Part shown: positions 1 to 22,088 of the stretch, in pieces
How the letters are laid out: each line of letters starts with the position of its first letter
Numbering within the stretch: the first letter of the stretch is position 1
NCBI GenBank assembly: GCA_017654855.1
Contig: CM030334.1
Coordinates: forward strand, 1,178,001 to 1,242,000
Source of the DNA: Podospora anserina
Taxonomy: Eukaryota
Reading direction: 5' to 3'
DNA length: 64,000 nt
Position numbers and translations under genes: made by a program
The notes under the pieces: generated by a model
Told to the model about the DNA's origin: nothing
What the model saw: the letters and a program-made list of their open reading frames with translations, nothing else
The model's database searches: none

Positions 1-1346
1 CCTCCTGCATGGACATGTTGGCATAGGCTGAGCCGTGCATGCCGAGCATGTGGAGGGACTTCTCATCAAGCTCGTCGAAGGCACCGAGACCGTGAAGGGT
101 CGTCGTCACGGGGATGGACGCCTTGTTCGCAAGCTCTCTGAGCAGCTCAACACCACGCTCCGAGCTAATGACACCTTGGCCAGCGTAGATGACAGGCTTC
201 TTGGCGATGTTGACCAAGTGAGCCACACGCTTGATAGAAGCACGGAGCTGCTTCTCGCTGGCCTCGAGAGCGGCGCGGGAGGCAGCGCTGGGGAGCGACG
301 GAATGGCGGGGGCCGTGGGAATAGCACGACGCAGAATACCAGCCGTCACGTCCTTGGGAAGATCCACGAGAACGGGACCAGGCCTTCCGCTGGTGGCAAT
401 CTCGAAGGCCTCGTTGATTCTTTGAGGCAGCTCAGCGACATTCTTCACCATGACGTTCCACTTGGTGCAGGCGCGGGAGATGCCCACAACGTCGGCTTCT
501 TGGAACGCATCGCTACCAATGGCTGTGGTAACGACCTGGCCGGTGAAAACGATCATGGGAGTACCGTCCGCAAGCGCATCAGCCATTGGTGTCACAACGT
601 TGGTGGCACCAGGACCGGAAGTCACCAAGACGACACCGGGCTTGCCAGAAGCGCGGGCGTAACCCTGGGCCATGTGGCCAGCGCCCTGCTCGTGTCTGGG
701 AAGGACAAAATCGAAATGTGGCGAGTTGTAGATGGCATCGAACACGGGAAGAATAGCACCGCCAGGGTAGCCGACTGTGTATAGTTAGCCAACTGTGCAA
801 GTTTATGGGAGTAGGAGTAGAGACATACAAATGTGCTTGACGCCGTGTCTGAGCATCATCTCATGGAAGATCTCACCACCAGTCTTGCCGATAAACCTGT
901 AGCGCATTTCGTGTTAACTATGCATACATATATATATATACATAGACGATCCTCATTTGTATAGTTGGGAGACATACGACTCGTCGACATCGTTCTTACG
1001 GGCGTTAGCCAGAGGTTGAACGTGATTGGGCTCGGCGTTGAATGATTGGGCGGGCTTTGCTCGTACGTCGCTGTATATAGGATGGAATTAGCCATTGTGT
1101 TTTTGTAGTGATGGTAGTGGTGAGTCACTACTAGTAGTAGTATGACTCCAAAGCCGACGATGGCGGTGGGACGACTTACGCAGCGGGCACCTTCGCGGCA
1201 GCCGATGTGGACTGATTCCTAACGTCTGATGGCCCATTACGGACACCTGTGATGGCAGAAGCCTTTTGTGTGAGGGAAGCAATTCGCTGTTGGCTAGGCC
1301 GAGTAGTGGCCAGCGCCTTGAGGGCGCGGCTGGTTTGACGGATCAT
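1..1346 (-). CDS. ILV2: Acetolactate synthase catalytic subunit, mitochondrial (5' part; 3' end outside window; 3 introns visible)
   Basis: Manual splicing gives MIRQTSRALKALATTRP (presequence-like), then [81 protein letters not shown], the TPP-enzyme N-terminal signature. GT-AG introns at about 1071-1179, 897-977 and 775-828. Confidence 0.96.
1121..1148. promoter_or_regulatory. Putative Gcn4/CPC-1 elements in ILV2 intron 1
   Basis: Perfect TGAGTCA at 1121-1127 and TGACTC at 1143-1148. Confidence 0.5.
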
Positions 1347-2981: not shown

Positions 2982-5848
2982 TTAGCCACCCAAGACTCCG
3001 CCCAAAAGACCACCCTTCTTCTTCTTACCCGACTTGAGACTGTCACTGAAGGATCCAAGACCCAATCCGGCAAGGACGCGGTTCAAGCCGAGTGTACCTA
3101 GCAACCCGTCAACCAGTCCTCCCAATCCAAGGCCGCTCAGCTATAGTACTAGTGTTAGCACGTTGTTCCTTGCGTTGCAAGTGGACCCTGAAAGGACTTA
3201 CCAATCTGCCAACGAGGTTGAGCACACCACTCAATAACAACCCAACGGCGGCAAGGATCTGGAACAGAGGCTCGTTGAGCAAACCCCACAGAGGGTTGAG
3301 CTCCTTCTTTGCGTGGGGCATATCCTCAAGCTTGCGCTTGGCATTGTCGATGCACTGAGTGACATCGCCAGTGAGATCCTTGAGGAGCTCAGCAAGACGG
3401 TACTCCTCCGGAGTGGCCTCGCGAGCAGCAGTCTTGTGCTTGGCGTTGGCCGAGATGCGGCCATCAGGGTCGAGGCCCTTGATGATGCCTTGAGCCTCGG
3501 TCAAGATGCGGCCACCCTCTTCGATTAGAGGGCGGACCTCCTTGACAAGCTGCTCTTCGTCGCGCTCGTCTTCTGGAGTGCGCTCTGCCTTGTCGATTTT
3601 CTACTGTGTGTTAGTGATGAACAAGCTGTGGCGTGAGTTGGTAGTGATAACTTACCTCGGTGATCATCTTGCAGATAGGTCGAATCTTGTCAAGGCACTG
3701 GGCAATGCAGACAGACATCTGGATGGCCATCTTCTTGTCATTCTCGGCTTGCTCGCGCTTCTCCTTCTGTTCAGGTGTCTCCTCGTCCTTGACCTCAGGA
3801 ATGCCCTCAAGAAGCGAGCAGTGGCCAATGACAGTGCCCTTCTGGTCGACAACATCACCGTCGTCGTCAATCTCCTTGCCCGAGCAGACCTGAGGATCGC
3901 CAGAAGTCAACTTGCCAATGAGGTTACCATCACCATCAACAACATTGCCCTCCTTGTTGACCTTGCGGCCCGACATGGGGTTCTTGGACTTCTGAACCTC
4001 CTCGGGCTCCCAGCGCTCAGCCTTGCCAATGACATTGCCATTCTTATCCAACACATCACCATCCTCATCAACCGCCCTGCCAAACAAGACCTTGCCCTCT
4101 CCCTTCACCAATCTCCCCACGATATCCCCCGAAGGCGTAACAACAGTCCCATCCTTAGCAACCGTGCACCCCTCCAACTCGGCAAACGGCCCCTCCTTGG
4201 ATCCCTCCCTCTCCCCCTCACTAACCAACTCCGCCTTCCCCAAAACATCACCACTCTCACTCAGAATATTCCCCTTCCTATCACACATCCTCCCCACCAT
4301 CCTCTTCGGATCCCCCTCCACCACCCTCCCGTAAATAACCCCGTTCCCATCAACCACATACCCCGCCTTGTTGACCCTCTTCCCAGCCAACAAGCTATTA
4401 TCCACCTCCTTAACCTCCTCCTCCACCTCCTCCTCCGGCTCCCAACGTTCCGCCTTCCCAATCACATTCCCCGCCTTGTCAAGCACATCCCCATCAGCAT
4501 CAACAGACTTCCCCCTCAACTGCTTGACATCCCCTTCGATAATCTTGCCCACCCACTCCCCATTGCTGACAACCATCCCATTCCCGTCAACAACCGCGTC
4601 AGGGAAGGACTCGAACGGCGCAGACTCCTTGAGCATGTCATCACGTTCCGAGTCAGAGATGGGCTCAGCCTTGCCGATGATCTTGCCGTTGTCGGACCAG
4701 ATATCCCCGTTTTCGTCGACCTTCTTGCCGATGAGGTACTGTAGGATGCCGCTCACGACACGACCGACAACCTTGCCGTCGGAAACGACGTTGCCGCCTT
4801 TGTTGACGGTGCCGTTCTTGAGAATGGAAAAGTCCATTTGTTCGGCTACGGTGGAGCCCTCGCCTGCTTCGACGCCTTGGGGTTGGTCCTCTTGGATTGT
4901 ACCTTCGGGTTGACCTTCGGCTTGGGATGGGGAGAAGTCCTGGACCTGTGACTGGCCGTCTTGGATTTGGTGGGGGTCGAATTGCTCTTGTGCTTGCTCA
5001 CCAGCTTCAGTTTGGGGTTGCTGCTGCTCCGTGCCGGTGGTGGAGGGGGTTTTCTCTGTTTGCTGCTCAACATCGGGCTTCTCGGACCCTGACTTGGCGA
5101 CAGACTCGGCCTTGTCGCTGACGGTCTTGGTGTCAATGTCTGGCTTCTCAGAAGCAGCAGGCTCAGGCTCGTCGATGTTGTTATCCGCAGCCTCAACGTC
5201 TGGCTTCTCCGAGGCAGCCTTGTCGACTGTCTCCGAGGCAGGAGGCTTCTCCGATGTGGTGGTAGCATCCTCCTTTGCACTCTTGAGGAACTCCTCCCTC
5301 GCCTCATCAGTAGGCTGGTTCTCGCTCGCCTGGTCAAAAGCCTTCTTAGCCTGCTCCGTCAACCCCGACGGCGCCTCAGAGATCTTATCCGCGGCGGGGG
5401 TCTGGGTCTCTTCCTCAGCCTTGTCAGACTCTGGCTTCTCAGACGACTCGACCTTCTCCTCCGTCGTAGTCTTAGTATCCTCCCCAGCCTCAGTCTCCGT
5501 CTTGTCACTCATAGCCTTGGGCTCAACCTTCTCCGGCTTCTCCTCCTCCTTATCCTCCATCTGAATCCCCTCCTCTGTTTCCTTGGGCTTCTCCAGATGA
5601 GTATACCCTCCACTCTCCCTCTCCACCTCACTGCCATCATTCCCCTCGAAATCCCCCGACGTGGTCACAACCTCGTCGTTCTCCTCCTCCTCCTCCCGAT
5701 TCTTGTTCTGCTCCTTCTGGAGATCAATAGCCGGAGGGGAGGGGGCAGAGCGAGGGACGTTTTCCTCTTGGGGGGTGGAGACCTCCTGCTGCTGCTGCTG
5801 CTTCTTTCCCTTGCGGGAGGGGAGCGTCTTCTTCGCAATGTCGGACAT
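2982..5848 (-). CDS. Large repeat protein of the DUF3659/'LEA-domain' type: acidic disordered N-terminus, five ~60-65 aa repeats, helical C-terminal domain, Gly/Leu-rich tail (cluster gene A)
   Basis: ATG at 5848 (MSDIAKK). Repeats such as GKRVNKAGYVVDGNGVIYGRVVEG...GRAVDEDGDVLDKNGNVIGKAERWEPEE. Introns at about 3601-3655 and 3141-3201. Last exon LSGLGLGGLVDGLLGTLGLNRVLAGLGLG...GGLLGGVLGG*. Family name is from recall. Confidence 0.88.
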
Positions 5849-7453
5849 ATTGTCTTGTGGTGCGGTTGTAAAGGTGCCTTCCGTGGTGGGGGTTGTGGTA
5901 GGGGAAGCGGGACGTAAGGGAAGGGATAGGTTGAAGAAGAGTTCCAGGATGGCACAAGATAGGGACGGAGGTGAGATGATGGTGTGACTGTATAGGTAGG
6001 GTCTGTGGTGGAAAAAAAAAAGCAAGCAAGGTGAGTTACGGTGTGCTAAAGCTGTACAGTGACAACAAAATGATGTAGATGTGTGGCTGTGCTCAAAGGT
6101 TCAAGAGATTACCGTAGATAGCTATATAGATTTTTCGTTGGTCCAGAAGGAAAAAAGAATCAGACAAGAACACAGCACTAGCCTCAACCTTTTTATGTCG
6201 TCAGCATCTTGCTACCTCAACCACTATTTTCACCCGTCGTCGTCAGACGATAACTTCGAGACAAGCCGGCTTTTTCGAGAAGCTCAGAATATCTCCCCGG
6301 ACGTCATCATCGTCTCTTCTTTACGTCACGAAACCTAGGGGACTTCTCCTGCATTCACAAACTCCCACTCGCGCGCAAGAAGCAAACTGACAACCCCCCT
6401 TTTCCTTGTCCCCCAACACCCCCCAACACCTGCCGTCCCACCCACCTACCTATGCCCCCCGGGATGACTTCATCCCCCTCACCTCCCCGCCCTCCCAGAG
6501 GCCAACACCTCCAAAAGCTGCGCGTCATACCAGCCACACATCCCAAAATCCTGCCTGTGGCACTAAGTCTGCGTAACAAATCGACAGATCGGTGGCTTGC
6601 TTCAAACCTGTCGGAGGTAAAGTGTGGCGAGTGCCCTCCATCATTGGGCGGGGAAATCTTGATCAGGAAGGTGGGCTTGTCATTGGGATTGGACAATGAA
6701 CAAGCGAAACCGTTGAACTGGTGGGAAAAAAACTCAAGATTGGACAGCAATGTGTCAAGAAAGTTGGATGTTGTGTGTCACAGACACTCACAGTGTGCGT
6801 GTAAGAGGTGTGGCTGGATCAAAGAGTGGCTTGCCGTGTTTACGAAGCGGCAAGTAGCGTCAACTGTGGCGAGGGAGATACGCGGGCTGAGGTAAAGGAG
6901 TGGCCGTAGTGGCTGGTGTGTATTTTTCTCTGCCCACCCCCCTTGCTACATGGATATGGATCCTAGTGCAGTTGGGTGGTGAGTGGTGAATAACATGTGG
7001 GACTGACTGGCCAGGGCCAGCTACTCAGTTTCCTTCTAGGGCTGGCCTCCCGAAAAGCTGGGGGTGTGTGGGATGAAGCGAAAAACGTTGGATGTTCCGT
7101 TTGGCATCCCGGAACCGGACTGGAAACTTGCCGGGGTTCGAGATCTTCGCGTCCCCTCTTCTCACTCAGAAACCGAATTTTAGGGCCTCAGCTTCCTTCT
7201 CACCCCTCTCCCACGTGCATAACGGCTCACTAGCTGCTTGTCATGGAACTTTCTGAAAGAAAATTACTTGATACCTTCGCTATTGTGTGACGAGCTCGCT
7301 TTCTTTCCGGACCCTTCCCGCGGGTCTTGCAATCGCATAACCAAACATAAGTTTGGCACCATAACCCCGGAATTCGATTCCCATCATTCCTTTCATTACA
7401 TCATCCCAAGTGCATATACCAACGCCTCTGACGGCAAGACTGATCCCGATCCA

Positions 7454-8527
7454 TCAAGAAAACGAGATGTTAGGCTTGATCTGCTGACTACCAAACACGG
7501 TAGGAATCCGAATGGTAAGTTGAATCCCTTCCTTTGTTGACTTCACGTCCAGGAAGATATCGGACGGGCTGTCACTGGGGTTCTCCTTTCTCCAAGATTC
7601 CGCGTTCTGTCTTCTCTCTTCCTCCGTTCGTCTGGGTTGTCTCGGCTGGTCCGGCTCCTGCTCCTGCTCTTTTGCCTGAGACTGCTTCTGCTGCTCTCTC
7701 TTGGGAGATTTTGGCGGCGGTGACGGATGCTCTTCTTGCTCGTCTGCCACGCCATCCTCCTGACCTCCCTCTTTGTCTTCCTTCTCAGACTTTTTCCCCT
7801 GCTTCTTTTTCCTCACTGATGACGGCCCAGCCTCTGCTTGCTGCTGAATGCGCTCTCGAAGTTCCTGTTGCTCTTTCTCCTTGCGGTGAAGCGGGTTGTT
7901 GTTGTCAAGGAACTTCCCCACGACATTCCCAGACGCATCCAGAATATTGCCCAGGTGGTCAACCATCAAGGAAGCATTGGCCTTTCGCATCATGTCCAGT
8001 AAGCTGCGAGGTTGGGACTCGGTCCGTGGTGAATGTGGGCTCGTGCTGGGTTTCCTTTCGATCTCAATGTCGGCGACATAACCCAAAAGTTCCCCGTTGT
8101 CTCCCAGTATGTCGCCGTCCCTGTTGGAGACTTTGCGCCCAATAATCTCGGGGAGGTCACCGCCGGCACGGGCGAGCACCTGCCCCGTCTGATCGTCTAC
8201 AATGTCCCCATACTCATCAACTGTCTTGCCCATCAAAATAGACCCCACATAAGGCGGCAATTTTGGTCGCTCAGGTGATAAGGAGATTCCAGGGGAAACC
8301 TCGGGAATGCTGCCAATCTTGGGAATAGGGGCAACATATGCTGGGCTCCTACTTTTCGTTCTGTCTGGGGGATCCCTTTTTTCCTGTGTCTCTGGCTCCG
8401 GCTGGTCGGTAATGTCCTCAACTTCGATGTCGCTCTCGTCTTCATGCCCAACCTCCACAATGTCATCCTGTGACTGCCGGCGAGACCTTGGCAGTTGAGA
8501 TGCCTGAGTGAATTGTTTGGATGTCAT
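7454..8527 (-). CDS. Smaller DUF3659-type repeat protein with C-terminal DIFLDVKSTKEGIQLTIRIPTVF motif (cluster gene B)
   Basis: Single open frame from MTSKQF. Contains GKTVDEYGDIVDDQTGQVLARAGG...GRKVSNRDGDILGDNGELLG and VDHLGNILDASGNVVGKF, the same repeat as gene A. Confidence 0.85.
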   Translation of the reverse strand: MTSKQFTQASQLPRSRRQSQDDIVEVGHEDESDIEVEDITDQPEPETQEKRDPPDRTKSRSPAYVAPIPKIGSIPEVSPGISLSPERPKLPPYVGSILMGKTVDEYGDIVDDQTGQVLARAGGDLPEIIGRKVSNRDGDILGDNGELLGYVADIEIERKPSTSPHSPRTESQPRSLLDMMRKANASLMVDHLGNILDASGNVVGKFLDNNNPLHRKEKEQQELRERIQQQAEAGPSSVRKKKQGKKSEKEDKEGGQEDGVADEQEEHPSPPPKSPKREQQKQSQAKEQEQEPDQPRQPRRTEEERRQNAESWRKENPSDSPSDIFLDVKSTKEGIQLTIRIPTVFGSQQIKPNISFS

Positions 8528-10428
8528 GATTCTTGTAGTGGTGATCAACCTAGGTGGAATCTGCAGTGTTGGGAGTTGCTAGTATCCGATCGGACTCCAG
8601 TCCCCGCAGAGAAATGCAAAGGGTCTTGGGGCTGAAAGCCTGAAACACCAGTTTAGGCCGGTTCCAGAGCATTCGACTGGTCGACGTGCGTGAAGGCTGT
8701 TGGGTGTGTGTTGAGGGCGTGAAGTAGGAAAGGAGGGGGTGAGTGACGTCATCGGACCAGGGTTAAATCTTGTGAGCTTCGAGGCTGCAAGGTCTCGACT
8801 CAACCCTGGCAGAGTCGAGACCAACATGGAGCTGGGTTGGGTAACACGAGTGAGAAGACGGTGTTAGCCGATTGCACCTCTGCGCTTGCTAAGCTTATTA
8901 GGATAGCCTATGCAAATCGTCAGGTTGGCAGTCAAATTGCGAGTCTTTGCCCAAGACAAAGCAGAACATTGAGCTGGGCTTTTGATGTCCAGTGAGGTGG
9001 TTTTTTGTGCTGGGATGTGGCTGCATATCGGGGGCTTGGCATTGTCCCGAGGATCAGTTAGCGAACCGTTGAGATCAGTGCTGATGAAAGCGTTGAACTG
9101 CCTGGTTAGCTTCGGACCAGAATATCTCAAGCCCTGTCACTGGACGGATCAGAATTCTAGTGTTCTTCGAAATCGAGCGAGACTTGAGACATTCGAGCAG
9201 AACAATAGACGGGCCGAGCTGAAACATCATCAACGGACTGGAGAACTGCAGCCGCCATACGATTCGTCGGCCGGTGCTTGTTGAAAACCGGTTTCTGCAC
9301 CACTGCCTGCTCTGAAGCAAGCGAGGCAAGGCATGGAAGCGAGGTCAACAAGGTGCTGGCTCCTTTGGCATGCAGCTTTATGCGTCGTTAGCGGTTGATA
9401 AATCGTGGTTTTCCTGGAGATCATGAACGGATAACCAGCATATATCGGTCTTAGCCATGTCGAACCCCGTATGATGCTACAATGGCATCACGGCCAAGGC
9501 CGAGTCGGGCCGCCTGGGAGGTGACTCGAGATCTCGGAAGGCCAGCAAGTCTGACGGCTGCGCCGTGGTAGAGTTGCAGTCGTTCCTGGTGCCGGCATAA
9601 CAACGATGTTATTGCTGAGGATGACCTGTGCCGCATGGAGTTGTAACAACAGGCCATTACACGGAGGACATTATATGTCTGAGTCGAACCTCAGTCCGTC
9701 CATATATCGTAGAAGCGGTATGATAGGTAACTCGGGGAAAATGCAGAAGTGGCCGTCGTGCGTCATGACCTTGAGCGATCCCGAAACGCGCCACCGAGGT
9801 ACAGCAGCTGCATGCTAAGGTAGGTGGTCGAAGATCCGACGGCAGGCCGTTGTCAGGCAATTGTTCTTCATTGGAATTCCGATTCCTCATTGTCCGGACG
9901 TTGTAAAATGGCCTCACCAGATATCATGATTGTCATCAACAAAAGAAAATCTCGAGGTTGTTTTACAGCAGAGGTGCAATTTGTGACGCAGCGGTTGATG
10001 CACTGTAAATTGTTTTCTCCCAGGTTCCTGGCATGCCGCTGCATGACAGCTGCGAGCGCCCGCTGGAAAAGCACGGGTCAACTGTGGCACAGTGGAACCT
10101 GCCCGCTGAAATCGATCCGGGCCCCTGTGTAACGTGCCATTAAGCACTGGCCATGCTATCGGCGCCATACTAGGCAAAAGCTTCGCCAAACTTCACACAG
10201 AGACAAAATACAGCAAAATAGAACAACAACCACAGTGTCCCGAACCATATCTAATACAATTATTAGGATAAAGATAGTATACAAAAGACCAAAGACCAGA
10301 AAAAACCCATCATTAACAAAACAACTACTCCATTCGCCGCCCGACATCAGATACCCTCACCCAGCCCTGAAATGCACACGAGATGAGAAAAAGCTCACGA
10401 GAGCTTGGAACCGGAAAGTTTAGTTGCT

Positions 10429-11184
10429 TCAGTTCCTAAGGAATTAGCCCCATGTCTCTGTCTTGCAGTTGACGTGTAACAGTGTGCTATCAAGCGGAGG
10501 CGCATCATCCACCATCATGGTCATCTCATCGAGCATCTGTCTAGGCAAACAGCCTGCTGATCGTCCTCCACATGGGAGGGCGTGTCTTGCTTATGTCTCT
10601 CTACATGGACCTTTAGCCTTAGGTAAGAAACATGACGGAAAGAGAGATGAAGTAAACAAGAAGGCGATACATCCGACCCTCGAAGCTAACCAAATCGCAG
10701 TCGCCGTGGTTGTCGCATGCGCCGTTCACTTGATCAGGGGGAGGGAAGGAGAGGGGAAGGGGAAGGGGTAAGAATAGGGATGGGTAAAATGAAGATAAAA
10801 GAAAAGGGTAACTTACAAGAGAGCAAGCTCAAGATCGCCATGGATCTTTGCCTTGAGAGTAATCTCAATGTCGAGGTTGAGGTCAAGACGAAGCCTCAAA
10901 GTGTCGCTCTTGCCGCCGCCACCACCGCCTTGTTGGTTGACGGCGCCGCCAGCTACACCACCTAGCACACCGGTTGCGCCGTTGACAAGGCCGCCTGCTG
11001 TTTGTCCGACGCTGTCGAGGGCAAGGCTGTCAAGGGGACCACCGCCGCCCTGCTGTTGTTGGCGCTTTCCGCGTCTCCGTGGGGGAGGAGCATAGTCCTC
11101 AGACTCCTCACCCTCAGACTCGTAGACCTGGGGCTTTGGCTGGCGCTTGGGCTTCTTGGTCTCTGAGCCGCTTCGGGAAGACAT
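10429..11184 (-). CDS. Small low-complexity protein ending in LRLRLDLNLDIEITLKAKIHGDLELALL (cluster gene C)
   Basis: ATG at 11184 (MSSRSGSETKKP). GTAAGT donor inside the last Leu codon (10816). Candidate branch/acceptor GCTAATTCCTTAG ends at 10436, giving ...ALLN*. The unspliced form stops at 10813. Confidence 0.85.
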
Positions 11185-11942
11185 TGTGGGTGTTTGTTGT
11201 GGTGGGAGTAGCCGTGAGGTGTTGTGGGAAGAGATGGGTTCAGGGTCTTGCTGATCAGGTTGCTTTCTAGAGAAGTTGAATGATGAGATGCATCTTAAGG
11301 GTCCTAGGGACTCCGAGATGGGCACTTATAAACGGCAGACATCTCCAGAACCCTTTGTGTCCAAAACAGGATTCTATCGGACGGATGAGCAATGAAGTCA
11401 TCGGCCTCGACAGGAGGAGCCCTCATTCTGACGAGTCCAGCAGAAAATCTCCGACACCAGGCCCTACACCAGGCCCTACATCACAGCCGCTACAGCACAC
11501 CACGGCTAGCCGACGGCCTTACACCATAAGGGTACAGTAGTCACTCAGCACAAAGTATGACTGTCTCTGTCCAATGATCACGGGGGGTAGCACCATGCTC
11601 GTGTTCTAGGCAAGCGAGGATGGATCAACACAAAATGGGGGTGTGTTAATCTAGCCCCTGTTTAGCTGCATAAAGAGAAAAGCTCACTAAAATTACAGCG
11701 CCGAGAACGCCAACCGCCCCCTGATGCACTGTGCAGCACTCAACACCCGAGGCCAATGACACCCCAAGGGACACCCCCCCAGGGCACATCATCCCGGCCC
11801 ACATGAAACATGCATTCACACCTCACCCACAAACACCATCATCCAACAAGACAAGTCCAGCTTCACATGATCCTCCCCCCGCGATCGCTCATGTCAACGT
11901 CACTCTCACGCACACACCCCCTCCCCATCCTCCACGTTTCGC

Positions 11943-12722
11943 CTACCCATTCGCGCCCTTGACATAGCGGCTCTCCATTCCCAACTGCAGCTGCCGGCGA
12001 AGCAACACAGGGACCCACTGGCGCGAACGGTGTCTGTTCAACACGCCCCCTTCCGGCCATAGCTCCTCTTTGTCCCCCTCCGTTTCGCTCTCATCCTCAC
12101 TCTCACCCTCGTCCTCGCTTTCACTCACATCCTCCGAAAAACACCCATCGCGATCAAAAGCGATGGCCCATTTCTTGTTTTCCATCTGAACCGCCACAAA
12201 GCGGGCCGCGTCACCTTGCAGCGTCAGCCACTTCTCATCACTGGTCCAGAACCATGGCCCGATGGTGTGTCCCAGCGTAGCCTGCCGCCCTCCGTGGCGC
12301 ACCAAGTTGGTGTCTTTATCGACATAGATCCAGTTCAGCATGGGCGGGTCGTCGGCGATGGTGCTCACCATGCCCAAGTGCTGCTCCTCGGACGGGTATG
12401 GGAAGTAGTACCCAAAGAACTTGTGGCCAGGCACAGGAAAGGACGGGTGGTCGATCCACAACTGCCAAAGAGAATGTCAGCCGAACGGAGTTTCTTCCGG
12501 CTTGTTGATGTCATCTGGGTTTTCCCAAACAAGACTCACCATGCCGTTCTTCAAAACGCACCAACACTCGACCGGGCCATCCTCGTCGAGAGAAACGGTG
12601 ACCGTCATACGGAACTTGGCCTTCTCTTTTGCCGCTTCATTGGCCTTCTTCTGTGCGCTCAGGGCTTCGCAGACCCCTATCGTCGTGGGAATCCCCGCTA
12701 TGACAAGCAAGCCCACGACCAT
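11943..12722 (-). CDS. Conserved-looking fungal protein with N-terminal hydrophobic helix and PPMLNWIYVDKDT domain (cluster gene D)
   Basis: Exon 1 MVVGLLVIAGIPTTIGVCEALSAQKK...KNGM. Intron at about 12462-12539 (GTGAGT..CTGAC..CAG). Exon 2 LWIDHPSFPVPGHKFFGYYFPYP...GMVSTIADDPPMLNWIYVDKDT. Confidence 0.87.
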
Positions 12723-13507
12723 CGTCTCGGTAGTCGATATTCGTCGTATTGGGTGCTTAGGAGGAGGGTAGCAATGGCGCCAGAGTATCCGAGTCTGTGT
12801 GATGTCGTCTGGTGTGATTCAGTCTCATTCAAACAACATCTCATACTCGTCAGCTTCATCTTCACGGTGGAAGGTTGAACACAGCTTCGTCATATAGTTC
12901 CAAGACCCTACCACCCACCGTCTCTCCGGCCGGCCGTTAGTACGGACGAGGCTGTTCTTGCGTTCACCCCCCTCCTCTCTCCTCTTCTTGGCGGGACAAT
13001 GCCATCCTATGCAACCGAAGTTGGCTAATCCCGGTAATCTGAAAAGCTTGTTTCCTCCTCAACCTCCCATTACTGCAGCGGCTAAACAGCTCTCATGCAG
13101 CATTGACGTCACAGGCCTCGAAACGATGCCCTCCAGCTTGCAAGCCATCATGCCTTTTTTTTGCGCACCCAAAGAAACTTGTTCGGCCCACCCCCCTATG
13201 TCGTCACCCGGCACCAGATTCACGAAGCCGTGGTCTGGTGAGAAGCCGAAGAGCCCCAAAATCATGATTTTTGGTCGTTTCCCGAAGCTATGATGCATAA
13301 GGGGTCTCACTGGACCCTTGGTCGATCCTTGGAACGGCCTTGGTTCAAAGAATCTCTTTAAACCTCATCACCACTAGGCACCACAAGTGATACCTACTCT
13401 TCCCGTCCAAACTTTGCAGCTAGCTTTTTGTTTTGTCCCAGCGTGATCCCAGCATCTATCTCCACCAGAAGCAACACATTGACCTAAAAGAAAACCAGCC
13501 TGTCGCC

Positions 13508-14797
13508 ATGTCGTCGGTAAGTTCTTTCTCTGTTCACTCACCATGCCATCTCAGAGAATGAAGAATCGTAACAAGAAAAAGCAGACTCCAAAGCCCAACG
13601 AGGAGTTCCCCAAGAAAGAGGATGAGACCAAGACCGGGCAGCCCGAGGCTAGCAACCTGCCTCAGACCTCCACAGTTGGTGACAACAAGCCCGAGGACAA
13701 CAAGCCCACGGAAGCTGGCCGTGCTGAGACCGACAAGCAACCTGGAGACAAGCCCCTCGACAATGAAGACTACGACGAGGAGAACCCAGATGAGGAGAAC
13801 GCGGGAGTTCTAGGTGACGACTACCAAGAAGACGAGGACCAGGAAGGCGAAGAGCCATACGACGAGGAGGGAGAAGAGGAAGAGGAGCAGGCTTACGACG
13901 ACGAAGAGCAAGATGATGAGGACGCTGCCTCTGAAGAAGACGAGGAAGAAGAAGAGGAGGAAGTCATCCCTCCACCCCAACCACAGCGACAAAAGAGCAA
14001 CACCACCAAGAAGGGCAAGCCCGCCTCCGTCGTCGACGACCGCAGCAGCACACCCTCTTCCTCCCAGCCTCCCACCCCCAAGGACGATGAGAAGCCCCAG
14101 CCTAAGTGGATGCGCGACCAAAAGAAGAAGAAGCAACGACAGACCGAGTCTGATGTCGACAACAGACAGGTCGACCGCCCTCGCCGCAGGGGGAAGAACG
14201 AGCCATCTTACCGTGAGCAGCAACAGGCGCTGTACCGTCAGCAGCAGCAGCAGCAAATGATGATGCAGCAGCAGCAGCAGCAGCAGGGCGGTGGTGATGG
14301 TGGCGGCAAGAACCCATTGAGGCTCAGACTAGACCTCAATCTGGAGATTGAGATTGAGCTCAAGGCGCATATCCATGGTGATTTGACGCTTGCTTTGCTG
14401 TATGTTTACCTTTCTTTTCATCTTTTCTACCCTTCTTCTTTTGTGGCTTCCCCTGATTCATGGTCCTGGCTTTGTGTCATCATCGCGCATTGGCTTAGTG
14501 GCTTCCACGTGAGCGATACCATGCCGACCAACTCTTTTAACACTTTCTCTCTTCTACTATCACGGATGAACAAGGCAATGAAGGCTCATACACACCGATT
14601 TTCTCGGGGATTTTGTCACAGCAATTAGGGCTATTCAGTTTCACGTCATCAAGAGAAAAGAGAGCAAGATCGGCTAACCACGACGGCGCGTTGTTATCAC
14701 TACAGGGACGGATAAATTGCACTTTTCTTCTTTCCATGATCAGGCGTTGGGAGGTGCAATACCTATGTTGTCAAGGGCTGATGTAATATGCAGATGA
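13508..14797 (+). CDS. Acidic/poly-Q disordered protein ending in LRLRLDLNLEIEIELKAHIHGDLTLALL, paralog of gene C (cluster gene E)
   Basis: Micro-exon ATGTCGTCG followed by GTAAGT at 13508-13516. Main exon runs to 14399. GTATGT donor at 14400 inside the last Leu codon. Candidate acceptor GCTGAT..TGCAG ends at 14793, then A TGA. Confidence 0.83.
14219..14286 (+). repeat. CAG-rich microsatellite encoding poly-Gln in gene E
   Basis: Runs of CAG encoding QQQALYRQQQQQQMMMQQQQQQQ. Confidence 0.8.
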
Positions 14798-15866: not shown

Positions 15867-16410
15867 ATGCCCACCTCTCCGCAGGCCGATAGCACCGAGC
15901 CCGAGACCACTGCGATCACCGACCCGACCGAGCCACCAAGCTGCATTGCCTGCGAAAGCACCACGAGGAGAGTATGGACTTGCATCCAGTGCGGTTTCAA
16001 CTTCTGCGATGATTGCTGGGGAAAAGAACGTCCTCACAAGCCCCGCGTCATGGGCACCGGCGGCCGTCCCCACGAAAAGGTCAATCTTGGGTGTGGCCAA
16101 GCGCCTCGAATATATCTTCCGCAACAAGGAGGTTGAGGACCTAGACGGAGAGTTTGCCATAGATGCGAAGAACAAGTGGTTCGGCATAGATCAGGGTAGC
16201 GATGGGTTGACGTTCAACTACACAGATCGCTTGACCGACCTCAGCATACTGGAGAGTAACGACCACAATGCCGCTGATCGCTTCCCACATCTGGTTTTAT
16301 TTGTTGGCAAGATCGGTACGTCCTCATTATCAAAGACAGTATGGATCGAGATACCTACTGATACTTGATCCTAAATACCCATCTAGGCGCGGTTAAAACT
16401 GCTTGTGAAG
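15867..16410 (+). pseudogene. Truncated, frameshifted 5' fragment of a Zn-ribbon/P-loop/patatin-family gene (paralog of 24614-29060)
   Basis: CIACESTTRRVWTCIQCGFNFCDDCWGKERPH...RPHEKVN, frameshift near 16091, then KRLEYIF...KWFGID...DRFPHLVLFVGKIG. Homology stops at the P-loop, just after the intron at about 16316-16386. Confidence 0.8.
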
Positions 16411-17532: not shown

Positions 17533-19406
17533 TCAAAAATGCTTAACGTACTTCTCCAACGGTTCTATCACAGAGATCAACACCTCTTGAACGAACTCGG
17601 CTTTCCCCAGGTCTGGTGTGTCGACAAAGTTGACACCGACACACCTCGCAATGACATCCGCCAGCTCCGGCCCATGTGTCATTTCCACCTCCTCCTGCCA
17701 CTCCTGCGCCGCCCGCCAATGTGTCCAATCATTCGCCGACCCATCGGAGTTACAGTGAGCTTTGTAGTAGGGTTGGTCTTCGATGCGTTCCTGAAAGAGG
17801 AGCTGGAGGAGAGTCGTTCCAAGTGTGAAAATAGTCATCTGTGCGTGTTCTCTGGCGTTGGACACTTGTCGCTCCAGTGCCGAGCGGATAGAAGTGTGGT
17901 TGAAGTAAACCTTGGGGGGTGTATTTCTGACAACCTGGACATCGCGATCATCCCAGGCTTGGGGGATCCAGGCGGATGTTCCCAGTCCGAGAATGGTGTA
18001 GGCAAGCTTGATGCCTATGCGAATACGCTCGCTGAGAAGAAGGGAGGCTGGCTTGCGAAAGTCCACTAGTGTTTGTATACTTGACTTTAACGAGGACTCT
18101 GTCTCACTTGGATGTTGTCGTTTAGCACTTAGAGTGATTGTGTTGTCCTCATAGTGAATGGTGTCTCCATGTTGCTCCAGCACAGATATGGGATTTTTCA
18201 GGAGGTTGCAACCAACTCGGAGCTTCTTTGGGACAGGCGATGCTGCCTCAGGAAGTTTGGGTACTGCATGGCGTTGTGCCGAATCTGGTTTTGCGAGCTT
18301 TGCCGTTTTCCTAGGCATCCAGATGGGGTCTATGATGGATTGACGTGGATTTACCGCGGTTTGGAAGCTCGAGAGTGCGAGCACCGTGGAATTCTGCTGT
18401 TTCCCTGCCTTGACATGCATCTCGAACCCGGCATCCAGCCGTATGCGAGCGGTTAGGTCTGCCACCTGATCGAACAAGGGCTCAGCATTGCCGCTCCCGT
18501 CACAGGTAGAGTCCACTCCAGCAGAGACTTCGACGCCTACTTCCACAGGCATGTTTGGTGGCTCATTTGAACCCAGAAACAGGTTGATAGCCCCCCTTCC
18601 TGGCTGTTTTGCGTGGTGATCAAACCAGACCGTAGCTATCCCACACGGATGAAGAGTTTGACACCTGCAAAGCCAACTTTCAGGTCGAAAAGCCCTGTAG
18701 AGCTGAGCCGTCTTAGACTGCATGTCAAGATAAGGAGCCGTGGCAGCTAGGCATGCTTTCCACTCCTCCTTGCCCATGATAGCTGGTGCAAGCAATGTGG
18801 CTTGCGCTATACGAAGGTCCGCCTCGAGAAATCGGCTGATTTGTGTGTTTATCGTGGTTACTTCTTTCATCAGATCCCGCTTTTTTGTGAAGCTAACAGC
18901 CAGTCTCAGAATTGCAAAATCAACAGTCCCCGAACGTGGGATGTGAATCTAGAGGTGAACATTGTGTCAGAATCCATCATGGTCCTCGCTGAACGTGACC
19001 ATTCCTAACGTACCTTTCCGTCTTGTATGGGCATCAACAGAGTACAAATCTCTTCCAGAATTTGGTTCAGACGGCGAAGCTTTTCCATGAACCACACCAA
19101 CTTTTCTCTGCCAAGTCGAGCCTTCAGCATCGATCGGAGCTTTGAATCGTGCCATCCTCTCGAATGCGCGTTGTTCAAGAGGTCTGACTCTGTGGCGGCA
19201 TCCAAGGCCAAAGGTCGTAAGAGAAGTTCCACGTTCTGTCGAAATGCAATGAGTTCATCTTCGACGGCAGAAATAAAGTCGGGGAATTGTGATGAAAACT
19301 TCCACCAGAACTTTGTCATCTGAAGATAACCCCGCACTAGCTTCCCACCGTCGATGATGAGTGGAAAAGTGCCGAGGACGACACCGGCCACTTCGAGGCC
19401 AGACAT
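17533..19406 (-). CDS. Protein with HeLo-like N-terminal helical domain and degenerate kinase-like C-terminal domain (DUF7580-type)
   Basis: Starts MSGLEVAGVVLGTFPLII, typical of fungal N-terminal cell-death-like helical domains. Intron at about 18949-19012. C-terminus ERIRIGIKLAYTILGL..AWIPQAW..IFTLGTTLLQL..ADVIARCV resembles a kinase C-lobe without HRD/DFG. Domain names are from recall. Confidence 0.75.
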
Positions 19407-19698
19407 GTGGATTAAGGTTGATGGGCTCCGATACCTTGACGAAATTATAAAGGCGAATTTCAAGTTCCCCCCGGATACCTCCCAGACTTTCTTCTGTCAA
19501 TCTTCGACGACAGCTTTATTGTGGAGGGGTGCGTTCCGGTCATGCACGTCGGTGCAAATACTACCCGCCCCAATCGAAGAGGGGTAAGCGTCAGCACCTT
19601 GCGGGGGCTTGCCGATGTCGAAGGTCATCTTCACCAGTGTTTCATATCATCTGTGTCGATTTTCAACTCTGTTAAAGTACCGAAGAAGCCCCTCGAAC

Positions 19699-22088
19699 AT
19701 GTCACAAATATCAGAGTACGTTGACCCCGAACTTTTGTTTGACTCAGCGAGGCATTGTTGGGCAAATTTCGAACACTTAATTCAAATCCTTCCGCGAGAT
19801 CACCAGCATACCATCACAGCACACGATGCCCAGGGCCGCTTCAGTGTCTGGAGACAGGATCTGGAGGGGTTACAAGACGAGCTACTTTGGAACTCGACAG
19901 ATGAACGGAAACAGGATGCTCACAATGCCATTTACAATGCCCTCCTAAATCTTAACAGTGCCCTGAACGACGGTATGGAAACTCCCTCTCCAAGGTGGCC
20001 GTTTCAGCTTCTAACTCCTGCCCTTCATCTACCCACATTAGTTGGATCGATATTTTCCGAAGAGCAGCCGGGCAGTCAAGAAGATGATCTCATGTCTCTG
20101 CTGGGAGATGAAGAGCAAGCAGACCCAGAGAACGCAGAACTCGTTGCGTTTCTTTCCTCGCCAACAACTCGAATTGATGAACTTTTTTTCAGTATTCGGT
20201 CTCATATAGACCGTTTGTTCAAGCTGGCCTCCTTGTTGCGACGCGAAATTCATCATGAAAGCAGCAGTCTAGCTACAATACCTGTTCCGGCACCAGGAGA
20301 CGATTTCATCTATGATTATCACATGTGCCGCCTCCAAAGAAAATATCCGAAGCTATCTCAACAGCCTCGGCTTTGCAAGACACTTGGACAGGCCCTTTTA
20401 TTCCGGCGCGCGTTAATTCTTAGGAAGAGCAAAACGAAAGACCGACATACGCCAGAAATAAGCCCTCAACTGGAGCTGAGGAGCCTACCTACGTTGTTAT
20501 CAGGCAACGAGTCAAAGTCAAAATCTCCAGCCCCGTCTATGACCCCAAAGGAGAGCACGGCAATCAACACATCTGCAACCGAAAAGGATGCAACTCCTAC
20601 GTATGATACGGACACTGGGACCGAACGAGTTGTCTTCGAGGAAGACAATGGTGGGCTGGAGGTAGCAGACTTGACCACATTTGTCATTGATGGGATCCCT
20701 CTTCAGTTCGGCAAACCTTTTCAGTGTCCGTTCTGTGGTGTCATCAAATCAATTGGCACACGGTCCGAATGGAGGTATGTTGATTGTTTGACAGCAGGCT
20801 TGCAGTCTTTTATTTCTACGACTGGGTGCTAATTTGGAATTGTCTGTTTAGGCAGCACGTGTCTGAGGACCTCAAACCTTACGTCTGTACGTCCCAGCAA
20901 TGCGGATCGGGTCTGTTTGCAAGTCGACGCGAGTGGTTTAGCCACGAACTTGAGTTTCACAGAAGCACCTGGAAGTGTCAGCCCTGTCACGTAAGGTTTC
21001 TGTCTCGATCGACTCTGATGCAGCACCTTAACACCAAGCACCAATCCCAAAACTTGAAAACCAGCGATATTTTGGCCATGGTTCAAACAAAAAGAGACTC
21101 CTCTACTAGATCCTGCCCACTGTGTGACGAATGGACAACGCAAGAGACGGAGAGGGACAGCACGAGCTTTTGCCAGCATCTGGGAAGGCATTTGCAGCAG
21201 ATTGCACTGGAGGCGATACCACCGCTAAAAGGGATGGAAGCAATACCATTGATATCGCCTAGGCTCCTTGACCAGAGCGCGATCTTGCGGTTGCAGCCAG
21301 TGCAGAAAGTGGAAGCAGATATGAGGCTTCTTGGAATCGACCACCCTGACACTTTGAAGAGTATGACCAGGTTGGTATGGGAGTTGACTGACAGTGAAGA
21401 GTACTCGGTTGCTGAGCAGTTGGCGTTGAAAACGTTTGAAATGAGTAAACAGGCGCTAGGGGAGGACCATCGCGAGACACTCTACAGAATGTGTACGCTC
21501 GCTGAGGTATATCGTCGTACCCATGACACCAAACACGAATCGGAATCTCTGGCACTACAAGGGCTTGAGGCGGCAAAAAGAGTGCATGGAGAGAATGATC
21601 CCAGCGTGGCAAATTTCCTATCTGTACTAGGAGAGATTTACACGGACCTGGGTCGGTTATCGCTTGCCGCTGACGCACAAAACAAAGAGCTGAGGATATA
21701 CATGGAGAACTTTGGAGGAGAAGATCCCAGCACTATGCACTGTATGGACAAGCTATCAGACACATTACTGGACGACAAGAGGTACACAGAGGCGGAGCAT
21801 TTCGCCCTCCAAGCCTTCGAACTGCGAAAGAGGGCGTTTGGACCGGATCACACGGAAACTCTGGTCAATATGTACAATCTGGCATTGATTTGGCACGCCA
21901 TGGGCCGCTACGATGAAGCAATCCAGTTGCTGGAGGACTATATTCACAAACAGCAGAACATCCTAGGAGAAGAATCTACTACAGACATCGAGACGTGGCA
22001 GATGTTGCTGGAAAGTTGGAAGGCCCGTCAAGTCTCCAGCCAACCACAGAATGCCAGGCGAGGTAAATCGCGAAGTGGCGGTCAGTAA
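19699..22088 (+). CDS. N-terminal helical domain + C2H2 zinc fingers + C-terminal TPR (kinesin-light-chain-like) repeats
   Basis: MSQISEY...GRFSVW...IDRLFKLASLLR. Zinc motifs FQCPFC..WRQHVSEDLKPYVC..C..WFSHE..H, CQPC..HLNTKH and CPLC..HLGRHL. 42-aa repeats LGIDHPDT, LGEDHRET, HGENDPS, FGGEDPST, FGPDHTET. Introns at about 19973-20041 and 20775-20851. Confidence 0.88.

Follow-up and report, generated by a model that had tools for sequence, protein, structure and literature searches.

A 28-residue amphipathic strand motif shared by two clustered genes of Podospora anserina and its possible role in intermolecular assembly

The DNA considered here, referred to below as the window, is a stretch of 64,000 nucleotides of Podospora anserina (GenBank assembly GCA_017654855.1, contig CM030334.1, positions 1,178,001 to 1,242,000 of the forward strand) in which five neighbouring genes, designated A to E, form a cluster; two of them, C and E, encode proteins with a closely similar motif of 28 amino acids (aa) at or near the C-terminus (Table 1). 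An earlier inspection of the letters, the sequence-only reading, had proposed that C and E differ greatly except for a nearly identical 28-aa tail; both copies were located, 24 of the 28 residues are identical, and the motif is indeed the sole part that the two proteins have in common. A search of the whole genome (36 Mb, nine contigs) with gene C returns E at E=4.3e-11, which places the likeness beyond chance, and since only 61 of 81 nucleotides match between the two copies and the same codon is used at only 14 of the 23 shared residues, conservation acts on the motif as protein.

As the genome is fungal and contains introns, raw open reading frames (ORFs) mislead at the gene ends; the gene models derive from contigs of four runs belonging to four studies, treated as RNA from their GT-AG joints (they are not recorded as RNA), and their depths are not used to rank genes. 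C and E are both transcribed, and in each the spliced contigs give a phase-2 intron that interrupts codon 28 of the motif; gene E starts at 13508 rather than 13543, and the two acceptors of its intron yield proteins of 276 or 277 aa. In 139 of 251 proteins zero to two residues follow the motif. The C and E copies, viewed earlier as tails, are not quite the last residues, the C protein ending in LL-E-T and the E protein in LL-N or LL-D-G according to the acceptor. The position of the intron recurs in the family: of 96 motif copies on loci, 71 have a GT after the second base of codon 28, as do all 54 copies whose locus measures at least 3 kb (a count that is not de-duplicated); the 25 copies lacking this GT all lie on short contigs, which are probably transcripts. 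Within the stretch occupied by the last gene C intron, a low-depth GT-AG joint on the plus strand (10620-10699), and therefore in antisense, is present in two of the four runs and may reflect a spliced antisense transcript.

Table 1. Coordinates of the five cluster genes, the motif copies and the codon-28 introns within the window
Feature	Position	Strand	Evidence or remarks
28-aa amphipathic beta-strand motif of gene C	10899-10817	minus	codon 28 completed at 10600
Gene E copy of the 28-aa motif	14317-14399	plus	sequence comparison with the C motif
Gene C, 125 aa	10591..11184; exons 11184-10817, 10600-10591	minus	RNA joint 10600/10817 in 4/4 runs
Gene C phase-2 intron within motif codon 28	10601..10816	minus	spliced contigs
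Gene E, 276/277 aa	13508..14715; exons 13508-13516, 13585-14399, then 14622-14628 or 14706-14715	plus	RNA joints
Gene E phase-2 intron within motif codon 28	14400..14705	plus	next exon at 14622 in 3/4 runs, at 14706 in 4/4
Gene A, 916 aa	2982..5848; introns 3601-3655, 3141-3201	minus	ORF and spliced contigs; ortholog of PODANS_3_3210, in its 90% cluster
Gene B, 357 aa	7454..8527	minus	two DUF3659 repeats and conserved C-terminal beta segment
Gene D, 233 aa	11943..12722; intron 12462-12539	minus	N-terminus hydrophobic; no match to a Pfam family; conserved member of the cluster

The motif shows a near-perfect two-residue periodicity and contains neither proline nor a turn cluster. The hydrophobic moment of the C and E copies reaches 0.96 and 0.91 at 180 degrees versus 0.07 and 0.06 at 100 degrees, and among 108 distinct 28-mers, drawn from 237 proteins and the retrieved loci, L, I, V, M or F account for 85% of the odd and 7% of the even positions. 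What had been described as a strict alternation of hydrophobic and charged residues thus stands as a strong periodicity, but one of hydrophobic and polar, not strictly charged, positions, with N8, T14 and A26 on the polar side, A17 and G21 on the oily side, and L28 breaking the pattern. The mean variant carries 8.4 charged residues, 1.2 N/Q and 1.1 G per 28 residues, with a net charge of -0.9 and almost no proline. The 108 variants align with zero gaps; 107 of them have L5, L9 and G21, and 106 have A17 and D22, so that the motif is near-constant while the preceding arms diverge; the conservation of both faces would suit a strand whose faces and edges all serve as interfaces.

Four copies of the motif are present in the genome, namely those of C and E and two further ones, L003 at C1:4122070 and L004 at C8:4094108, and a reciprocal search returns the same four; four per genome is to be taken as a lower bound. 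A profile built from these four sequences and run against 1.84 billion representatives matches 1,022 protein clusters at E<=0.001 (150 of these listed), and within a set of 20 hand-picked divergent matches the nine clusters with an organism name are all fungal. Named members come from Borealophlyctis (a chytrid), Rhizopus, Umbelopsis, Backusella, Lentinula, Peziza, Epichloe and Podospora, a range that extends over chytrids, Mucoromycota, Basidiomycota and Ascomycota. The search including bacteria that the sequence-only reading had suggested found nothing close: none of 270 pattern candidates from prokaryotic genomes was confirmed, and none of 147 from viral contigs, with narrow patterns that exclude close relatives only. 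The motif has no Pfam family (54 members, with matches examined up to E=1) and no NCBIfam match, a sequence search of the PDB and a Foldseek search with its monomer model each give zero matches, and of two ESM Atlas searches one was empty and the other yielded only unnamed eukaryotic clusters. Neither the motif nor the five genes as one cluster are described in the literature searched, which mostly left out subscription papers and was not queried with the motif sequence itself; PMC6143729, PMC5423626 and PMC6529585 offered no more than unconfirmed gene labels. The motif is real and ancient and, as far as these searches reach, a family that had not been described; the novelty concerns the motif family and the cluster, and the mechanism considered below is one that we infer.

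The two remaining copies in the genome differ in character. Paralog L003 (L003:1589-1690, G000:C1 ~4122158-4122260), which is unlinked to the cluster, has a codon-28 intron with two candidate AAG acceptors, the predicted choice between them leading either to an end one residue past the motif or to an extension that is conserved and is predicted to contain a transmembrane helix. Among 22 L003-type proteins, all gene predictions, four end in a single residue and eight carry the conserved extension, four of the latter with a 19-residue hydropathy of at least 2.0. The most divergent copy, L004:1495-1578 (G000:C8:4094108), lies in a short gene adjoining an ORF that we take to be thioredoxin-like from its WCGPC. 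Elsewhere in the family, two proteins contain two motif copies each, of which P0122, from Lentinula, looks like tandem genes fused by the gene caller and P0121 like a duplicated segment.

Ahead of the tails of C and E, the Gln/Gly linkers quoted in the earlier inspection are present as described, and in the wider family such a linker is common but not universal, at least three G occurring within the last 10 residues of 55/90 arms and at least three Q within the last 20 residues of 34/90. The arms had also been considered disordered, which holds by composition, since the low-complexity arms of C and E include only 14 hydrophobic residues in 95 and 25 in 247, respectively, but they are not featureless. 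In gene C, a Ser/acidic tract is followed by a basic patch, a Gly-rich and weakly amphipathic segment, the Gly linker and the motif, and this arm is about 70% identical among close orthologs. Of 90 non-redundant arms of 70 residues, 68 contain a basic patch, against a mean of 15.9 and a maximum of 25 after shuffling, and in 23 of the 90 a D/E/S tract precedes it (mean 2.0 after shuffling). The gene E arm of 247 aa is mostly acidic, with 70 D/E, 33 K/R and 32 Q.

The monomer predicted by AlphaFold2 for the motif (39 residues, 54 sequences) is extended, without internal hydrogen bonds, helix, arch or hairpin; the predicted local distance difference test (pLDDT) is 78-79 over the motif, DSSP assigns no structure, and the predicted template modelling score (pTM) is 0.20. 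Because the model gives an unpaired extended strand, it suggests that the motif needs partner chains.

The order E-D-C-B-A recurs in metagenome contigs, and within a synteny sample of 61 non-redundant loci, obtained from 80 loci retained out of 289 and including 21 of at least 5 kb, two motif genes stand together in 12 of these 21 and at least one of D, B and A is found in 14. Gene C falls in the 90% cluster of PODANS_3_3230, its ortholog, and the best named matches, at 97-99%, are Triangularia/Podospora proteins; Spizellomyces, a chytrid, has a gene closely orthologous to A, and in Trichoglossum the gene tags of C and A are three apart. The Aspergillus fumigatus genes AFUA_8G04890 and AFUA_8G04920 were left out of account as unconfirmed orthologs. 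The product of gene A has an N-terminus that is acidic and disordered, five to six beta repeats of the DUF3659 type and a DUF6987 helical bundle with a hydrophobic helix; it passes the Pfam cut-offs of PF12396 and PF22485, and gene B that of PF12396, and DUF3659 is confined to the cluster in a search of the genome. A structural model of A is in agreement with this layout, showing a disordered N-terminus, six small beta repeats with DUF3659 strands of 3-9 residues, and a helical bundle, and it has zero Foldseek matches at E<=0.001 in PDB or BFVD. The best fold match of the DUF6987 bundle is the laccase small subunit 8paq_B (Z 12.2, root-mean-square deviation 3.1, 142 aligned), and the fatty-acid-binding domains of Mp1p/AfMp4p follow at Z 9.1. 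The C-terminal beta segment of B shows no similarity to the motif.

Published arrays of P. anserina support a common regulation of the five genes. In the accessible part of PMC3125171 (supplement 2), expression is higher in mat+ than in the fpr1- mutant, by x16.2 for 3210, x1.8 for 3220, x9.5 for 3230, x4.2 for 3240 and x2.3 for 3250, while the six genes flanking Pa_3_3210-3250 range from -2.2 to +1.3; as all five rise and the six flanking genes do not, the cluster genes are co-regulated, 3220, 3240 and 3250 being assigned to B, D and E from the gene numbering. CRE-like elements (6 in the cluster vs 3.6 expected) and STRE-like elements (26 vs 20.6) are not clearly enriched. For the DUF3659 family, the only paper found to name it (bioRxiv 2022.11.24.517872) reports, in the part available, that the Aspergillus oryzae protein LdrD localizes to lipid droplets and is among the proteins whose loss alters them; that part makes no mention of the motif or the gene cluster.

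From its sequence pattern and the monomer model, the motif is moderately likely to be an obligate intermolecular beta-strand assembly module. One extended strand of 28 residues per chain would pair edge to edge with its own copies and with paralogs in an antiparallel or staggered register. The Leu/Ile/Val face would be buried, whether by packing on a second sheet, by curling of the sheet or by contact with lipid, and the charged face and disordered arms would point outward, with the basic patch in C-type chains and the long acidic arm in E. C and E would then be co-expressed subunits of one assembly, produced alongside A, B and D; the helical bundle and hydrophobic helix of A and the hydrophobic N-terminus of D make these two proteins candidates for a connection to lipid droplets or membranes. 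Such an assembly may act in mature or stressed mycelium. Within this judgement, an open polymer is a real possibility that we hold tentatively. A closed, finite oligomer, in which a few chains would form a small beta-barrel or two-sheet sandwich as a hub with a hydrophobic core and disordered arms, belongs to the same reading and is unlikely if taken alone: every observation that favours assembly applies to it equally, the ending of 139 of the 251 proteins just after the motif is compatible with a tightly packed end, and the predicted membrane tail of the paralog is easier to fit on a small assembly, but an unbroken strand of 28 residues is long for a small beta-barrel.

Several observations weigh against intermolecular assembly or loosen its connection with the cluster. 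Assembly is plausible from the sequence pattern, the monomer model, the paralog family and the co-regulation of C and E, but a lone strand with a pTM of 0.20 is also what a partner-binding segment gives. Charge complementarity does not help: in a test on 108 variants with 20,000 permutations of the polar positions, the best antiparallel register, i+j=26, scores 4.7 vs 4.2 +/- 1.2 for shuffled polar faces (p=0.35), and shifting parallel strands by 6 is almost as good at 3.4, so that the charge scores single out no register; the i+j=26 fit, which looks perfect by eye, was dropped as evidence. Seven of the 21 loci have no detectable cluster partner (some are cut on one side), two of the four motif copies in the genome are unlinked, and the fold matches of the DUF6987 bundle, at Z 12.2 and lower, lie within the range of generic helical bundles. 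Deletion of Pa_3_3210, the largest gene of the cluster, leaves mating normal and causes no inhibitor sensitivity according to the available part of PMC3125171. In that of bioRxiv 2022.11.24.517872, an LdrD paralog is not on lipid droplets and the counterpart of LdrD, A or B, is not stated.

The same data may be read in other ways. The motif could be a docking strand that binds a folded partner by beta-augmentation, be it the DUF3659 repeats of A and B, the C-terminal beta segment of B, or D, with C and E serving as adaptors that do not self-associate. C and E are tightly syntenic with A, B and D and regulated along with them, A has five to six small beta repeats and B a conserved C-terminal beta segment, all of which agrees with such a role; we nevertheless consider it improbable, as the DUF3659 strands fall far below the length of the motif and neither the two paralogs elsewhere in the genome nor the 7 of 21 loci have these partners nearby. 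Insertion in lipid, the oily face lying on a lipid-droplet monolayer or several chains forming a membrane beta-barrel, would explain why one face is entirely aliphatic, and it draws on the localization of LdrD reported in the accessible part of bioRxiv 2022.11.24.517872 and on the HsbA/Mp1p-like fatty-acid-binding bundles among the DUF6987 fold matches (Z 9.1); nonetheless, the motif has no aromatic girdle residues, its model has no hairpin and the lipid evidence belongs to other genes, which makes this role quite improbable.

Least likely of the readings considered is functional amyloid, named in the sequence-only reading beside filament and shell, in its classical form, whether as parallel in-register cross-beta or as a HET-s-like beta-arch, possibly with a signalling function. 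The strong beta propensity, the sharing of a motif by neighbouring genes, as in amyloid signalling pairs, and the invariant G-D bigram, a G[DN] bigram being noted for HRAMs in the available part of PMC9815663, would all be in line with it. Against it stand the composition of the motif, with its many charges and few N/Q or G, the lack of a turn pattern, the C-terminal position of both copies and the lack of any NLR (NOD-like receptor) or effector domain in C and E. The roughly eight charges per motif disfavour parallel in-register amyloid, the only type to which composition speaks, and in-register stacking has the worst charge score of all registers, -8.7, as holds for any charged strand. Of the earlier proposal of disordered arms attached to an assembling beta core, this amyloid form is therefore disfavoured, while the more general arrangement fits the alternation, the unpaired monomer, the paralog family and the co-regulation of C and E.

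Comparison with known systems leads to a similar picture. The amyloid signalling motifs of fungal NLRs (HRAM, PP, sigma and PUASM) are described in the accessible text of PMC9815663 as stretches of about 21-28 aa, encoded in neighbouring genes, with a G-D bigram near the end. The present motif resembles them in being short, shared by neighbouring genes, prone to beta structure and provided with a G-D bigram near its end, but it is highly charged, lacks a turn pattern and scarcely varies between fungal phyla, and both copies are C-terminal on disordered arms. The arrangement that defines the NLR motifs, one copy at the N-terminus of an NLR and another at the C-terminus of an effector, usually encoded side by side, was not found, C and E having no Pfam or NCBIfam domain, and no HeLo or HeLo-like effector domain precedes the motif, only low-complexity arms of no family. 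The gas vesicle protein GvpA and its paralogs contain long beta segments with alternating hydrophobic residues within a helix-hairpin-helix subunit, and a co-regulated cluster of these paralogs builds one structure. By analogy, the motif is comparable in its alternating hydrophobic strand and in the several paralogs of a co-regulated cluster; it differs in that PF00741 and other Gvp families give no match (Pfam to E=1 for 54 members, and NCBIfam), no close prokaryotic relative was found, and the 39-residue monomer model (pTM 0.20) shows neither a hairpin nor helices beside the strand. Ionic amphipathic beta-peptides made by design, such as EAK16 and RADA16, alternate hydrophobic and charged residues, with blocks of plus and minus charge and a net charge near zero, and the motif is similar to them in its alternation, its blocks of opposite charge and its net charge of -0.9; in contrast to them, it is natural, 28 aa long and placed on long arms, with a charge complementarity no better than shuffled. 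DUF3659 and DUF6987 are Pfam domains of A and B, that is, of the neighbours and not of the motif, and the laccase small subunit and HsbA/Mp1p-like bundles are the best fold matches of the DUF6987 part of A only, with 8-11% identity and Z values typical of generic bundles. Some orthologs of gene A are labelled 'LEA domain protein' in databases, but LEA Pfam families give zero matches for A to E.

A bolder and doubtful extension of intermolecular assembly would be an ancient, fungus-wide cytoplasmic polymer, in the form of a tape, tube or shell, made of single 28-residue strands from paralogous subunits with basic or acidic arms and anchored to lipid droplets or membranes by the cluster partners and by a splice switch, in which the intron in the last motif codon would let a paralog stop after the strand or run into a transmembrane tail. 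If this were true, the polymer would constitute an unrecognized structural system of fungi, gas-vesicle-like in design but not homologous, and polymerization of the motif in itself would imply that a system of assembly other than the known fungal amyloids has been missed in fungi. The interest of the question lies in a strand that is nearly unchanged from chytrids to ascomycetes, with several paralogs per genome and a co-regulated cluster, for which the searches returned no family, structure or paper. The motif would also open a first way into the study of the DUF3659/DUF6987 proteins, for which the label 'LEA domain' is wrong, and it is easily accessible to experiment, since the peptide can be synthesized, the protein has 125 aa and the host is amenable to genetics.

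Some minor observations concern the other genes of the cluster and its surroundings. Divergent genes D and E are covered in three runs by an unbroken contig, 12540-14229, which suggests overlapping 5' ends or a bidirectional promoter, the contig not being proof of a single transcript. A 4 kb contig of run X1 (5981-10017) covers gene B and more than 1 kb on each side, indicating unusually long untranslated regions or read-through. On the plus strand, a low-depth GT-AG joint at 2819-2986, antisense to the 3' end of gene A and seen in one of the four runs, is a possible spliced antisense transcript. Contigs in three to four runs match short stretches of gene A (4412-5440 and 5676-5807) and then continue into unlike sequence, probably owing to short repeats common to other transcripts. 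On the chytrid ortholog of A, the beta-flower family PF21785 scores 25.6 bits vs a cut-off of 38 and is absent from P0245, although it is listed for many homologs; the DUF3659 repeats are barely covered by the fold search, and this sub-threshold match to the beta-flower fold, described in the accessible part of PMC10584680, is a lead only.

Beyond gene E, the segment at 15867-16368 on the plus strand encodes a Cys-rich N-terminus that matches the B-box weakly, with a score under the cut-off. A divergent pair follows at 17533-19463 (minus) and 19609-22088 (plus); one of its proteins belongs to DUF7580, the other has TPR repeats and a zinc-finger-like segment, and the motif is seen in neither. 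At the other end, positions 1-1335 (minus) hold the 5' part of the gene directly downstream of gene A, which presumably encodes an acetolactate synthase.

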